Shown: one piece after another, positions 1,249 to 10,070 of the stretch
Numbering within the stretch: position 1 is the first letter of the stretch
Layout of the letters: every line of letters starts with the position of its first letter
Origin: Escherichia phage EC.P1
Strand: one strand, 5' to 3'
Sequence record: PQ657772.1
DNA: 64,000 nt
The notes under the pieces: generated by a model
What the model saw: the letters and a program-made list of their open reading frames with translations, nothing else
Databases searched by the model: none
Told to the model about the DNA's origin: nothing
Translations under genes and position numbers: made by a program

Positions 1249-1268
1249 GGGGAGAAGTTTTTCTCCCC
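1249..1268 (-). promoter_or_regulatory. 5'-proximal GC-rich stem-loop (GGGGAGAA..TTCTCCCC) in mRNA leader
   Basis: inverted repeat immediately downstream of the -10; the same class recurs before most early genes. Confidence 0.5.
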
Positions 1269-1280
1269 TTGATGTAAACT

Positions 1281-1308
1281 ATTATACAGTACTATAATCT
1301 ATTGTCAA
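1281..1308 (-). promoter_or_regulatory. sigma70-like promoter (TTGACA-N16-TATAAT)
   Basis: read directly on minus strand; AGTACT in spacer. Confidence 0.6.
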
Positions 1309-1322
1309 ACTATTTTTTTATA

Positions 1323-1664
1323 TTATTCGAAATCTTCTGGACCGGACTGATAATCATCTTCACCGTATGCACTTTCTAACCGCTCGCCAGTGTGATCATC
1401 AGTTAGTGAGTCATCCTCATAGTTCACGTCTACGCCAGTGATGTAAAACTGGCTATCGTCTGGATCATTGAAATTAATTTTTTGGATGTTTACAATAACT
1501 GTATTGATACCCAGGACACCGCCATCAGCCGTTACAAAGTACTGATATTTTTCACAACCGCCTGAATTGAAACCGTAATTAATTTCAGCCCGACCATCAT
1601 TTAAACGCAGTGCCTGGGCGATGATTTCATTTTCAAAGTTAGATTGAGCAATTGAGATAGTCAT
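1323..1664 (-). CDS. hypothetical protein (acidic)
   Basis: 113-aa ORF; promoter/hairpin module at ~1685-1750. Confidence 0.6.
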   Translation of the reverse strand: MTISIAQSNFENEIIAQALRLNDGRAEINYGFNSGGCEKYQYFVTADGGVLGINTVIVNIQKINFNDPDDSQFYITGVDVNYEDDSLTDDHTGERLESAYGEDDYQSGPEDFE

Positions 1665-1746
1665 GATTTGTTTCCTTATTACCAGGGGAAACCGTTTCCC
1701 CTTTCGATGTAAAACATTATACGCTTATCAGGAAGTAATGCAAGTA

Positions 1747-2214
1747 CTATTTCACGTTAATTTCAAAGTACTGCTCTTTGATGTTTTCCTGTTGGTAAAT
1801 CTCGTTTAATGCTTTAAGATCTAAAACCTGTTTACCTGCTGCCTGAATATACTTTTTAAGAGTCGCTAACAGCTTCTCAGGCGTGTTTGTAGTCTTACGT
1901 GTTGGGATCTTATCGTGCCCCATAGCGTAGTACTGCTTACGTGCTATAGTACTGATAACACTGCGGTACGGTTCCATGATCAGCTTGTCTGTGTATTCGT
2001 CGCTATCCCCAAACTTCATACCGTGGATCGCAAAGGTCATCATCATGCGGTCGTTATCGCGGATATTGTGGGGGCAGTCGGCAAGCTCGCGAGTCAGTGA
2101 CATAGTGATCCCCACGTCGCCACCCAGCGGTAAAGGTCGGGCGATAAAGAAACCGTTAGGGAATACTTTCAGGAAGTTTTCTTGAACTGCTGCGACGAAT
2201 TCGATGCTATTCAT
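1747..2214 (-). CDS. hypothetical protein
   Basis: 155-aa ORF; promoter/hairpin module at ~2235-2300. Confidence 0.65.
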   Translation of the reverse strand: MNSIEFVAAVQENFLKVFPNGFFIARPLPLGGDVGITMSLTRELADCPHNIRDNDRMMMTFAIHGMKFGDSDEYTDKLIMEPYRSVISTIARKQYYAMGHDKIPTRKTTNTPEKLLATLKKYIQAAGKQVLDLKALNEIYQQENIKEQYFEINVK

Positions 2215-2397
2215 AATTCATTTCCTTAATTAGTGGGGTAAGTTGTTTCCCCTCTCGATGTAAAACATTATACGCTTATTGAGATAGTTTGCAAGTACTT
2301 TTTAAAAATAGTTTTCAGTACTCAATACTCATATAATAGATACACTTATGCACCCTGTGGGCTAGTGAGCTATCTCTCAATGAATATATAATAGCAA

Positions 2398-2421
2398 AAT
2401 GGCTGACCGGAGTCAACCACT
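2398..2421 (-). terminator. hairpin terminator, variant of the GGTTGAC-loop-GTCAGCC cassette, followed by T-run and TATTAT
   Basis: ggctgaccggagtcaacc inverted repeat; T-run on minus strand. Confidence 0.5.
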
Positions 2422-2425
2422 TTTT

Positions 2426-2569
2426 TCATTTATTTTTAGCTTTTAGAATCGCCGCCTTTCGCGTCATGCCTTGCTTGATGTATTCTTGTACTTTCGCTTT
2501 ACGTGCATTCGCTTTATTTGCTTTCGTAAATGCCGAACAACTTTTATAGTTTAAACCTGTTGGATTCAT
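2426..2569 (-). CDS. hypothetical small basic protein (47 aa)
   Basis: hand-called ATG ORF, Lys-rich; abuts neighbouring ORFs. Confidence 0.4.
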   Translation of the reverse strand: MNPTGLNYKSCSAFTKANKANARKAKVQEYIKQGMTRKAAILKAKNK

Positions 2570-2659
2570 TTAAATCACCATAAAGAATAGATAGGTTACT
2601 AACAACGCCGCGATCAATGCACCGACCAGGGCCGAACTATAGTAAGCTAATGTTTTCAT
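2570..2659 (-). CDS. putative 29-aa hydrophobic peptide
   Basis: ATG overlaps the upstream stop (ATGA coupling); hydrophobic. Confidence 0.3.
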   Translation of the reverse strand: MKTLAYYSSALVGALIAALLVTYLFFMVI

Positions 2660-2808
2660 TTTTTAGCCTGAAAGTAATGTTTAATTTGAGCGGCGGTCAG
2701 TGCACAATTACGCAGGAAGTTTTCTGTATAACTTTTGCGAGTACTGAAAGAGAATTGACCTTTGCCGTTACCGATAGTAACATCAAACCGAGCGTTGTAT
2801 TGTTTCAT
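2656..2808 (-). CDS. hypothetical small protein (start trimmed)
   Basis: track ORF 2656..2838 begins at an ATG inside the 5' hairpin loop; likely start is the downstream ATG after AGGAG. Confidence 0.5.
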   Translation of the reverse strand: MKQYNARFDVTIGNGKGQFSFSTRKSYTENFLRNCALTAAQIKHYFQAKK

Positions 2809-2858
2809 TTTGATTCTCCTGTTATTGGGGAGAATCATTTCTCCCCTTCATGTAAAAC

Positions 2859-8160: not shown

Positions 8161-8384
8161 TTTGTAACCCTCATTCAGTAGTTTATGTAAGTATTATACG
8201 CTTTTAAAAACAATTGTCAAACTATTTTATCAGGGGAGTTTTTCGTGTGCCTTACTCCTGGGCTACTTAACGGGAAGTTACTTATTTCGTTCCCCGTCCT
8301 GATGTAAAACATTATACGCCTTTAAACATAGTTTGCAAGTACTTTTTAAAAATAGTTTTCAGTACTGAATAGTAAAAAAAAGTA

Positions 8385-8413
8385 TTGACAGCATTATCAA
8401 GTACTGGTATAAT
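8385..8413 (+). promoter_or_regulatory. plus-strand promoter (TTGACA-N17-TATAAT), convergent with promoter at 8529-8557
   Basis: consensus hexamers; leader element ACCCACCGGGTGC at 8434-8446. Confidence 0.5.
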
Positions 8414-8528
8414 ATACCCCATGACAACAGCTAACCCACCGGGTGCACAATTGTAACTATACTAAACTAATTTTTCTATAGATACACTCCCGCACCCTAT
8501 GGGCTACGGCTTATCTGCCAATGAATAC

Positions 8529-8557
8529 ATTATGCCAGTACTGACAAAATAAGTCAA
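8529..8557 (-). promoter_or_regulatory. minus-strand promoter (TTGACT-N17-CATAAT), convergent with 8385-8413
   Basis: consensus hexamers; leader element AGCCCATAGGGTGC (plus 8489-8505). Confidence 0.5.
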
Positions 8558-8587
8558 TACCGGCAATTGTAAAGATTTGTAAACTGC

Positions 8588-8824
8588 TTATACTGCAATC
8601 GCGTCCAGGCTATAATAATAATAAGTGCCGTATTGGTGTACTTTATTACCTTTTATTTCAGTACTGAATGAATCCGAACGGTTTGCATATGATGTTAATT
8701 TAAAGTACTTTGATTTGCTGATACGTTGCCATACACCACAGATCCGCTGTAAGTAAGTAGTTTTATTCGTGGTAGTATCTTTTACGGTTTTAACTTCAGT
8801 CATATACATATTAGTCATTTTCAT
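8588..8824 (-). CDS. hypothetical protein
   Basis: 78-aa ORF. Confidence 0.55.
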   Translation of the reverse strand: MKMTNMYMTEVKTVKDTTTNKTTYLQRICGVWQRISKSKYFKLTSYANRSDSFSTEIKGNKVHQYGTYYYYSLDAIAV

Positions 8825-8905
8825 TACTCCAGGTTATAGGCGGGAAGAGTTCCCGCTCTCGATGTAAAACATTATACGCCTTTAAACATAGTTTGCAAGT
8901 ACTTT

Positions 8906-9172
8906 TTATTCAAGTACTGCAATCTTTTTAGTACGGTACACGGTCACGCGGTTGCCCTTTCGGTCGAGCTTTATTTCTACCACTCGACGCGATACACTAT
9001 CGGGACTTTTTAAGGCCGCTAACCAGTACTGTAATGATCTGGCGGTACTACGCTTTACAATGGCCCAACGTTCACCACTTGCCGATCCCGCTCCCATATC
9101 TTTAAACGTTGCCCCGTCCTGGCGTGCGGCGATCCGAGCTTGTTCACGCGTCGCAAAATACTTAATATTCAT
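8906..9172 (-). CDS. hypothetical protein (start trimmed to ATG)
   Basis: track start is GTG; internal ATG at 9170-9172. Confidence 0.5.
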   Translation of the reverse strand: MNIKYFATREQARIAARQDGATFKDMGAGSASGERWAIVKRSTARSLQYWLAALKSPDSVSRRVVEIKLDRKGNRVTVYRTKKIAVLE

Positions 9173-9258
9173 GCTGTTGCCCTTATCGTTGGTGTATGAA
9201 TAAAACACTATTATAAAGTACTATCGCAAAAAAATGATAGTACTTTAAATAAATTCTA

Positions 9259-9498
9259 TTACATTCCAACCATCGCCGCACGGATCGCAGTAGTGCTATA
9301 TTTGAATCCGTCCGGTGTTTTATCTTGTCCAGTCTGTTCTAAAAATAACATCATATGACGGGCCGCATCATTGCGATTAGTGTTGTCGTTAATAAAATCC
9401 AGGGCCAACCGATACAATCCCTCATCGTTATTAATCCACAGGCTTACATTCCAATGAGTTTTGTTTTTGTGACCTAAGAACATTTTTGATTTAGCCAT
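9259..9498 (-). CDS. hypothetical protein
   Basis: 79-aa ORF. Confidence 0.55.
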   Translation of the reverse strand: MAKSKMFLGHKNKTHWNVSLWINNDEGLYRLALDFINDNTNRNDAARHMMLFLEQTGQDKTPDGFKYSTTAIRAAMVGM

Positions 9499-9593
9499 TT
9501 TTTTTTAATCCTCTTATATAGTGGGGAACTATTCCCCACCTGATGTAAAACATTATACGCCATTAAACATAGTTTGCAAGTACTTTATTAAAC

Positions 9594-9956
9594 TTATTTG
9601 TAAATTTTGCCACTGTCAGCCCATACCAGGAAACGAGGCATATTATCCCATGCATCTTGTTTTAAGTTTAAGCCGTGCAATTCCTCAGTTGTTGCCATCC
9701 CTGGTACTGGCTTACTACACACCGCGAAATTTTCGCCCATATACTGATAAACCATCGTCAAATCATTTGAGATCATTATATGGATCATTGAATCCAGCAT
9801 CAAAGTAGCGGCGTATTGTTCACGCTTAAGCGGCAACATTGCAATAAGTTCCCGATAAGCTGCAATGTGAATTTTTACAGTTTCAGCCGGAAGACCTTTC
9901 ATCTCATCGCGGAAGTTTACCAGGTTAAGCATGATTTTATTGATTTGAGTCGCCAT
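9594..9956 (-). CDS. hypothetical protein (start trimmed)
   Basis: track ATG at 10013 lies inside the promoter -10 (TATAATG); the ATG at ~9956 is the likely start. Confidence 0.55.
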   Translation of the reverse strand: MATQINKIMLNLVNFRDEMKGLPAETVKIHIAAYRELIAMLPLKREQYAATLMLDSMIHIMISNDLTMVYQYMGENFAVCSKPVPGMATTEELHGLNLKQDAWDNMPRFLVWADSGKIYK

Positions 9957-10070
9957 CGTTTTAATCTCTCTTAATGTGTAGCGGGAAGTGTTCCCGCTCT
10001 CGATGTAAAACATTATACGCTTTTATCAGTACGGTGCAAGTACTTTCTACAAATACTTTTAAAATAGTTT

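Follow-up and report, generated by a model that had tools for sequence, protein, structure and literature searches.

In T4-like phages (RB49/phi1, PST and nt-1), repeated cassettes known as PeSLs have been described by Arbiol et al. 2010 (PMC2839356) and Comeau et al. 2014 (PMC4122927). A PeSL (promoter-early stem-loop) is a repeat of ∼100 bp made up of an A+T-rich region and a consensus sigma-70 early promoter, together with a Gn-loop-Cn stem-loop that includes G-T pairs, and a Shine–Dalgarno (SD) sequence and ATG; PeSLs flank small genes of unknown function, and inter-PeSL recombination shuffles these genes (PMC2839356, PMC4122927). We analysed a 64,000-nt stretch (the window) of Escherichia phage EC.P1 (PQ657772.1), which carries a repeated regulatory cassette of ∼90 bp in the terminal repeat of the phage. 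On the minus strand, fifteen copies are spread over 1224–10045, and two more are found at 39.6 and 54.9 kb (Table 1). Each joins a promoter to a G+C-rich hairpin and a ribosome site. Judged from its sequence, this appears to be a new arrangement of the known promoter/stem-loop cassette, in which the stem-loop has shifted to the transcribed leader.

Over its first 10.5 kb, the window shares 87–99% identity with Escherichia jumbo myophages of the 121Q / PBECO4 / G17 group (Asteriusvirus), with only 40–60% of this length matched in any single phage, and these matches, with 95–99% identity to Asteriusviruses, identify EC.P1 as an Asteriusvirus-like (RaK2-like) jumbo coliphage. Window positions 11693–4911 align with positions 1–6791 of fEgEco12 at 98.9% identity, and fEgEco12 has a 20,993-bp direct terminal repeat, shown by PhageTerm and restriction digests (PMC13070987). 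Therefore, window 1–11,693, read on the minus strand, corresponds to the first 11.7 kb of a ∼21 kb repeat, which opens with non-coding DNA of about 1.7 kb and continues with a series of small inward-directed genes. In the related phage PA5oct, the terminal-repeat genes are early and highly transcribed (PMC7318152), and RpoD-like promoters were predicted in the corresponding regions of CBB (PMC5259590); from these data we infer that the window genes are early and read by the host polymerase. The window also encodes a sigma-70-family protein (57339–58307, minus strand; Pfam regions 2 and 3, with RpoD_Cterm aligned over positions 4–220 of 238), so host sigma-70 promoter assignments in the RaK2-like clade are provisional.

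Promoter modules were listed by a scan for TTGNNN-N15-18-TA[T/G/C]AAT. In the cassettes, an A-rich stretch ending in (a)AAGTAC or TAGTAC abuts the −35, which is TTGCAA, TTGCAC, TTGCAT or TTGACA, with TTGCTA and TTGATA as further variants. The spacer is 16 bp in all cassettes, with AGTACTG right before the −10 or GCG at its end, and the hexamers match the consensus at 10–12 of 12 positions, as expected of sigma-70-dependent early promoters. TATAAT is followed by an A+T-rich discriminator, a g/a-tttt-ACAT-c/g start region (gttttACATC) and the hairpin, which begins 12–14 nt past TATAAT in most copies and has a stem of 6–9 bp and a loop of 3–5 nt. On its 3′ side, an A/U-rich spacer, often with ACTAA or GGTAA, leads to the SD and ATG of a small gene, the ATG lying 15–23 nt from the hairpin end. 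Within the window, the word TATAATNNTTTRYAT has 14 copies, which are confined to the minus strand from 1272 to 10017, compared with 0.09 in shuffles, and a repeat search of 1–12.5 kb returned a 17-copy, 55-nt promoter family. In isolation, the hairpins have folding energies of about −7 to −14 kcal/mol and the 60-nt leaders of −10 to −17 kcal/mol, and most of these leaders fold better than shuffled sequence. Two hairpins are degraded (Table 1).

A preliminary description of this DNA had proposed that early transcription units on the minus strand share an extended promoter followed by a hairpin and ribosome binding site. Every one of these elements was found where it had been placed, and the promoters are near-consensus sigma-70-type modules within the Asteriusvirus direct terminal repeat. 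The cassette had been assigned to most minus-strand genes; it stands directly upstream of 14 of about 27 in 1–10.1 kb, which is just over half and not more. These downstream genes encode 47–203 aa, and the three that were compared with Pfam gave no match. The position given for the hairpin, +6 to +30, rests on the usual sigma-70 distance from −10 to start and is to be read as an estimate. Finally, an ATG within the loop had been noted as a single case (2836), but 24 of 70 distinct hairpins have one, and it is not conserved.

The same arrangement is found in relatives. In fEgEco12, 121Q, G17 and UE-S1 the cassette recurs along the entire terminal repeat, with 15–19 hairpin copies each. Klebsiella phage RaK2 (Alcyoneusvirus) has AGTAC-TTGACA, an N16 spacer with cAGTACTG, TATAAT, gtattacatcaaa and a hairpin, and its stems differ from those of Asteriusvirus (GGGGATACA/TGTATCCC, GGGAATGAA/TTCATTCCC and AGGAGATTCCA/TGGAATCTCC). 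Across RaK2 and uncultured relatives the hairpin position is kept and the stems are other ones, including GGGAGAGA/TCTCTCCC; uncultured giant contigs in IMG/VR supplied further stems. Phage rV5 has neither the AGTACT promoter positions nor the hairpin. Phage CMSTMSU (MH494197, 'UNVERIFIED') was left out of the counts; it shows many single-base losses in the G runs of hairpins and in genes, which look like homopolymer sequencing error.

Several lines of evidence support selection of the hairpin as a structure. Aligning whole modules with MAFFT shifted the stems relative to one another and gave nothing usable for pair counts; therefore, equal-length windows centred on 3-nt loops were used, with the caveat that these are anchored on the helix. 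Among 28 distinct Asteriusvirus hairpins, 89.7% of cells were paired, compared with 78.0 ± 1.3 in shuffles, and 32 cells were changed on both sides, compared with 11.7 ± 2.9 (0 of 500 shuffles; slid controls 1–6). Adding five stems from RaK2 and IMG/VR (33 distinct hairpins) raised these values to 90.9% versus 75.1 ± 1.2 and to 47 versus 13.7 ± 2.8 (0 of 500 shuffles; slid controls 2–8). RNAalifold independently returned the same 8-bp helix, and 7 of its 8 pairs carry compensatory changes. These covariance results bear out the earlier suggestion of selection for structure, although only in part its wording that the stem sequence is conserved while the loop varies: the loops do vary, but the stems differ and co-vary, which is a stronger argument for structure than conserved sequence. 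The cross-genus stems are the most independent evidence.

The type of mismatch is informative about which nucleic acid folds. Helices were scored on Watson–Crick pairs alone, so that the search carried no wobble bias, and the internal mismatches comprised 11 G.T and 1 T.G compared with 1 A.C and 0 C.A. Since transitions are expected to yield both classes equally, the G.T excess points to pairing in the sense-strand transcript, and a hairpin in the non-template DNA strand is less likely. This asymmetry also bears on whether the stem-loop matters as DNA, either as a recombination hotspot that mobilises a gene with its cassette in the manner of PeSL mini-circles, or as a functionless passenger of a duplicated cassette. 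Indel boundaries do fall in or beside a hairpin (4911/4878), one RB49 PeSL crossover was mapped to the loop (PMC2839356), and all copies plausibly derive from one ancestor. However, ∼90 bp of shared sequence suffices for homologous recombination with no need of a hairpin, the pairing is kept by compensatory changes, also in a second genus with unrelated stems, and a 12:1 ratio of G.T over A.C is unexpected for a double-stranded palindrome or cruciform. We therefore consider a role as DNA, or none, improbable.

Comparison of the window with four relatives placed the collinearity breaks in cassettes (4911/4878, 2211/1752, 7481/7298 and 6129/5850). A single 92-bp fEgEco12 cassette aligns with both flanks of the extra gene 1747–2214, a gene that fEgEco12 is without, and this is the footprint expected of inter-cassette recombination. 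Because the breaks lie inside cassettes, the closest known kind of element is the PeSL of T4-like phages. In both, a repeated composite of ∼100 bp stands beside small genes in a hyperplastic region. The EC.P1 cassettes share with PeSLs a repeated consensus sigma-70 promoter (the 17-copy family, with aaaaAGTAC upstream), stems of the form GGGG(A/G)... / ...CCCC with 6–9 bp and 12 internal G.T/T.G pairs, the SD and ATG of a small gene in a variable region (40–60% shared by close relatives), and indel and replacement boundaries within the cassettes. They differ in the place of the stem-loop, which in PeSLs comes before the start site. The PeSL stem-loop is inside the promoter in RB49, where our scan found it in the promoter spacer or over the −10, and upstream in PST; both have been read as terminators of upstream transcription. 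In EC.P1 the stem begins 12–14 nt past TATAAT, predicted to be within the cassette's own transcript, it has no T-run, and AGTACT is built into the promoter. The hosts of PeSLs are T4-like, whereas EC.P1 is a RaK2-like jumbo phage and not one of the Straboviridae. Every PeSL property examined was present apart from the stem-loop position, so the cassette is a variant and not a plain member. In addition, the window has a second promoter family, aaaGGGTTGACTtcgGTCAGCCCtttttgcTATAAT, on the minus strand at 36862, 37445, 42068, 44829, 45610 and 49204. Here a terminator hairpin contains the −35 within its 5′ arm and supplies the spacer through its T-run, a classical PeSL-type terminator/promoter overlap.

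We next consider termination, the role proposed for PeSL stem-loops. If the hairpin terminated or attenuated upstream transcription, it would resemble the RB49 PeSL stem-loop that reduced downstream lacZ as much as rrnB T1 (PMC2839356), and some hairpins of the region were called terminators by the G17 annotators. Yet the 8 nt past the stem hold only 0–3 T (mean 1.6) in 70 distinct hairpins, compared with 6–7 T in the genuine terminators of this stretch, of which there are three (6976, 5860 and 5129). An intrinsic (Rho-independent) terminator was rejected, as none of the 70 copies has a T-run. A terminator here would also stop transcripts of its own promoter, and elsewhere in the genome canonical terminator–promoter overlaps are used (36862–49204). 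A double-stranded DNA operator for a repressor was weighed together with this reading; stems that co-vary within one genome exclude a single sequence-specific operator, and both an operator and a cruciform were ruled out by this covariation and by the G.T/A.C asymmetry. A terminator, attenuator or operator is thus very improbable. Outside the cassettes, the three terminators were the only GC hairpins in 1–10.1 kb without a preceding promoter, and gene junctions without a promoter in this interval had no such GC stem. Since in this early region the GC stem is found only behind promoters, it is not a free-standing intergenic or 5′ untranslated region element.

Alternatively, the hairpin could be the RNA site of a phage or host protein, such as a repressor that shuts off or translationally represses early messages, a processing nuclease, or a polymerase modifier of the antitermination type (as with lambda nut/boxB or HK022 put). 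In agreement, the hairpin keeps a constant place with respect to the promoter, two genera share the base of its stem (GGG(G)...CCC) and the single-stranded ACAUC(A/G)A leader, and dozens of co-regulated early genes carry it, as for a regulon-wide operator. The loops, however, are free in length (3–7 nt) and in sequence (TAG, ATGA, ACGG, CAC, GCGGT, ATATC and others), and with the upper stem co-varying little is left for sequence-specific recognition. The variable loops make antitermination and loop-specific protein binding less likely, and the lambda nut boxA/boxB and HK022 put arrangements do not fit the variable loops and single short stem seen here. No boxA-like element is present, and few terminators lie between the genes, leaving little need for antitermination. 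Searches of Rfam, over the whole window at the gathering threshold and over 1–12.5 kb at E ≤ 1, gave nothing relevant. On balance a protein-binding site is unlikely.

The analysis used scans by regular expression and folding plus the pair counts, and several further candidates were rejected. A boxB-type loop-specific protein site was rejected on the varied length and sequence of the loops. RNase III needs longer stems than those of 6–9 bp found here, and an RNase III site was discarded on this ground. An upstream open reading frame (ORF) starting at the loop ATG was set aside because this ATG is unconserved (24 of 70), buried in the stem and 1–2 nt from the SD-like arm. An N4-type hairpin promoter does not fit, because a complete sigma-70 promoter precedes the hairpin. 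A LexA box was also dismissed, as AGTACTGTATA fits one half-site only. Finally, the TG of AGTACTG-TATAAT is off by one for an extended −10, which fits only the AGTACTGgCATAAT class with its 17-bp spacer.

Stabiliser hairpins close to the 5′ end are known from the ompA and papA leaders and from the GGGAGACCACAACGGUUUCCC stem-loop of the T7 gene 10 leader. The cassettes resemble ompA, papA and T7 gene 10 in having a short G+C-rich stem-loop of free loop sequence, predicted to lie close to the 5′ end of a strongly expressed transcript, an A/U-rich spacer and a strong ribosome site. However, the hairpins of ompA, papA and T7 gene 10 begin 0–4 nt from the 5′ end, whereas the cassette hairpins mostly follow 5–7 unpaired nt, as counted from the predicted start. 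The literature on such hairpins is referenced in PMC3997798. Of the readings considered, the most likely, at roughly even odds, is that the leader hairpin serves passively, as RNA, to protect and insulate the individual early messages. Host sigma-70 RNA polymerase would fire the promoters once the first DNA enters the cell, starting at an A or C about 6–8 nt past TATAAT if the usual sigma-70 spacing applies. The hairpin would then lie at roughly +3 to +30 of its own transcript, and also inside read-through from upstream cassettes. Acting as RNA, it would reduce attack on the 5′ region of the transcript, or halt 3′ exonucleases after a cut in the A/U-rich spacer, and would keep the purine-rich SD-like 5′ arm and its neighbours from pairing with the real ribosome site or competing with it. 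In this way, expression would be strong for each small early gene and independent of upstream context.

A number of points weigh against protection and insulation. Simple orthogonal stem-loops are poor obstacles to RNase E scanning (PMC11194081). With a start 6–8 nt past the −10, the unpaired leader would be 5–7 nt for hairpins of the 12–14-nt class and 2–3 nt for those of the 9–10-nt class (39619 and some in RaK2); pure 5′-end protection is weakened by the 5–7 nt of most copies, and the start itself is placed by spacing. Emory et al. 1992 reportedly found that classical 5′-terminal protection needs very few unpaired nucleotides. Promoters without a hairpin occur in the same stretch (732, 994, 4388 and 8220), and GAP32 and CBB (Mimasvirus) have AGTACT at both promoter positions and short leaders without a hairpin. 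Given these Mimasviruses and local promoters, the hairpin would modulate expression and not be essential. As for the structural evidence, G.T is also the best-tolerated mismatch in single-stranded DNA, the pair-count alignments are anchored on the helix, and the copies are paralogues or orthologues, so counts of co-varying cells overstate the independent events.

T5 N25 is a very strong promoter with a purine-rich initial transcribed sequence that favours escape. The hairpin might likewise be explained at the level of transcription, with a purine-rich initial transcribed sequence aiding promoter escape and a 3′ arm that evolved to sequester the G-rich SD-like RNA, preventing R-loops, backtracking or spurious 30S binding. 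Consistent with this, the 5′ arm is 95% purine over 70 distinct copies, lies at about +8 to +16 and contains GGAG/GAGG words, the promoters are close to consensus, and PeSL promoters were too strong for intact cloning (PMC2839356). On the other hand, a palindrome with a purine 5′ arm reads alike on both strands, so that the bias may be inherited, and the hairpin-less promoters of the region are without purine-rich start regions. We regard promoter escape as distinctly unlikely to account for the hairpin.

The AGTACT of the cassettes had been described as a promoter motif, but it proved to be a genome-wide word, with 253 copies in the window compared with 21.7 expected. It accounts for 41% of all GTAC sites, has the preferred context CAGTACTG (57 copies), and occurs in all codon frames (86, 36 and 57 copies) as well as in intergenic DNA (74 copies). 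Ser-Thr is written AGT-ACT in 86 of 167 cases, compared with 25 expected, and the Tyr codon ratio TAC:TAT, generally 214:508, shifts to 34:4 where the neighbouring codons would complete AGTACT. Across the three genera of RaK2-like phages the over-representation is 10–20-fold. The word is enriched 17–20-fold in RaK2, GAP32 and CBB and neutral in rV5, and it is missing altogether from 100 kb of coliphage RB49, where 32 copies would be expected. Within promoters it is nevertheless position-specific: in three genera AGTACT stands at −39 in 40–65% and at −19 in 35–75% of promoters, against a background of 0.6% per position. It is thus a genome-wide word under positive selection that has fixed promoter places, and of the features described here it would be the most surprising to a specialist. 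We found no paper that mentions the word in jumbo phages, and nothing on promoter analyses of RaK2, Sharanji or fEgEco12. On the plus strand at 18054–33521, every terminator of the tandem RCC1-like genes (∼13 paralogues, 16.9–33.5 kb) is built from AGTACT, in the form (aat)GCCAGTACT-loop-AGTACTGGC(att) followed by a T-run.

The avoidance of AGTACT in RB49 and its selection here (∼1 per 150–250 bp, even via codons) suggest an unrecognised DNA-level system in this clade, which could be one of binding, modification or self-marking. Conceivably, the word is read by a phage-encoded or virion-delivered DNA-binding or -modifying factor; sites at −39 and −19, two helical turns apart, would co-switch the early promoters, and the hairpin would be the RNA half, marking phage immediate-early messages apart from host mRNA. 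We hold this to be doubtful, and both the reader protein and its link to the hairpin are speculation.

Table 1. Cassettes and other annotated features of the EC.P1 window.
Feature	Position	Strand	−35	−10	Hairpin	ATG	Remarks
Cassette 1	9954..10045	-	TTGCAC 10039-10034	TATAAT 10017-10012	9998-9980 (AGCGGGAA-cac-TTCCCGCT)	9956	AAGTAC; N16; SD
Cassette 2	9496..9585	-	9579	9557-9552	9540-9520 (GGTGGGGAA-tag-TTCCCCACT)	9498	
Cassette 3	8816..8904	-	8898	8876-8871	core 8856-8840 (GCGGGAA-ctc-TTCCCGC)	8818	
Cassette 4	8269..8344	-	8338	8316-8311	bulged, 8298-8269		no ORF after
Cassette 5	7454..7542	-	7536	7514-7509	7495-7477, degraded (one mismatch)	7456	intact in fEgEco12
Cassette 6	7201..7287	-	7281	AGTACTG-TATAAT (7259-7254)	7241-7222 (AGGGAGAA-atgg-TTCTCCCT)	7203	
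Cassette 7	6736..6819	-	6813 (TTGCTA)	6791-6786	6777-6758	6738	
Cassette 8	6416..6502	-	6496 (TTGATA)	AGTACTG-TATAAT 6474-6469	6458-6435	6418	
Cassette 9	4863..4954	-	4948	4926-4921	4908-4887 (G.U pairs)	4865	collinearity break 4911/4878
Cassette 10	4549..4635	-	4629	4607-4602	4589-4569 (GGGGAGAA-aatgg-TTCTCCCC)	4551	
Cassette 11	3034..3121	-	3115	3093-3088	3075-3056	3036	
Cassette 12	2806..2892	-	2886	AGTACTG-TATAAT 2864-2859	2846-2827	2808 (probable start)	loop ATG 2838 in the gene's frame
Cassette 13	2212..2300	-	2294	2272-2267	2252-2235, degraded (imperfect)	2214	left edge of gene 1747-2214
Cassette 14	1662..1749	-	1743	1721-1716	1702-1684 (AGGGGAAA-cgg-TTTCCCCT)	1664	right edge of 1747-2214 indel
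Cassette 15	1224..1314	-	TTGACA 1308	AGTACTG-TATAAT 1286-1281	1268-1249	1226	
Cassette architecture outside 1-10 kb	39542..39625	-	TTGACA	TATAAT	39582-39562, other stem (GGGGATGA / TCATCCCC)	39544	N16 (cAGTACTG)
Like promoter (54945) with long hairpin, other stem	54822..54951	-			54905-54854 (13-bp stem)	54824	
Related promoter	5633..5790	-	TTGACA	TAGAAT	no clean hairpin		promoter 5784; N16; gtattacatc; ~115-nt leader
Pyrimidine-dimer DNA glycosylase (endonuclease V type)	36872-37387	-					Pfam
HNH/NUMOD4 homing-endonuclease-like protein	44261-44803	-					Pfam
AAA/STAND-like NTPase	36034-36804	-					Pfam (weak, below cut-off)

Some details of the region concern gene starts and transcripts. ORF 9594–10013 (minus strand) and fEgEco12 g01 (1689–2108) were called from the ATG inside the TATAATG of the −10, and ORF 2656–2838 (minus strand) from a hairpin-loop ATG, the presence of which leads ORF callers to begin the gene at 2838. 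The true starts are probably the SD-preceded ATGs at 9956 and 2808, and the called starts too far upstream. Cassette 4 is followed by a ∼100-nt structured non-coding stretch and then the hairpin-less promoter 8220; this unit (8225–8344, minus strand) is duplicated in the terminal repeat at 87% identity (fEgEco12 3362 and 13616), and the fEgEco12 annotation gives it as a 36-aa ORF. Short units without an ORF are found at 8385–8560, and similar ones near 120–215 and 2330–2416 (minus strand) and near 6847–6930, 10320–10400 and 10536–10615 (plus strand). They have a strong promoter, often TG-n-CATAAT with a 17-bp spacer, and the conserved word CCCAYNGGGTGC after ∼25 nt. A pair of these promoters, at 8385/8557, faces inward onto a long and imperfect inverted repeat, which folds well on either strand (z = −3.5 and −4.0). 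The ORF-less units, which had no Rfam match, are candidates for small or antisense RNAs.

The non-coding first 1.7 kb of the terminal repeat contains an iteron-like array (10791–10942) with an 8-bp period (CGTCTAGC / CATCCAGC / CGTTTAGC ...), and beside it an exact 44-bp direct repeat (10071–10114 and 10124–10167) with two AGTACT. Both the array and the 44-bp repeat may act at the genome end, in packaging, replication or injection. Pfam matches nearby comprised a DNA glycosylase, a homing-endonuclease-like protein and an NTPase (Table 1), and a scan of the window for tRNA and tmRNA genes returned none.

The T5 pre-early genes are a host-takeover module in a terminal repeat. SPO1 has a comparable module, genes 37–60, also in its terminal repeat (PMC6873191). 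The EC.P1 region resembles both: its terminal redundancy holds many small early genes, and every unit has a host-type promoter and a ribosome site that are both strong. To our knowledge, neither the SPO1 nor the T5 module has been reported to contain a conserved leader hairpin or an AGTACT-type word. Within the clade, RpoD-like early promoters of the form TTGACA-N15-17-TATAAT with an A-rich upstream element were predicted in CBB and GAP32 (PMC5259590; GAP32 record annotation). These are promoters of the same type in the same region (the terminal repeat and adjoining early region), but the studies of CBB and GAP32 report neither AGTACT positions nor a leader hairpin, and the CBB supplement tables list other promoters.

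The cassettes would drive the first-expressed genes of a 350-kb phage, which encode dozens of small proteins of unknown function with a probable role in host takeover. Their anatomy lets gene starts be corrected and transcription units be predicted, as for fEgEco12 g01 and ORF 2656–2838, and as a part the cassette would be a compact natural 'promoter + insulator hairpin + ribosome site'. Together, these results extend the PeSL idea of mobile, gene-shuffling promoter cassettes from T4-like to jumbo phages.

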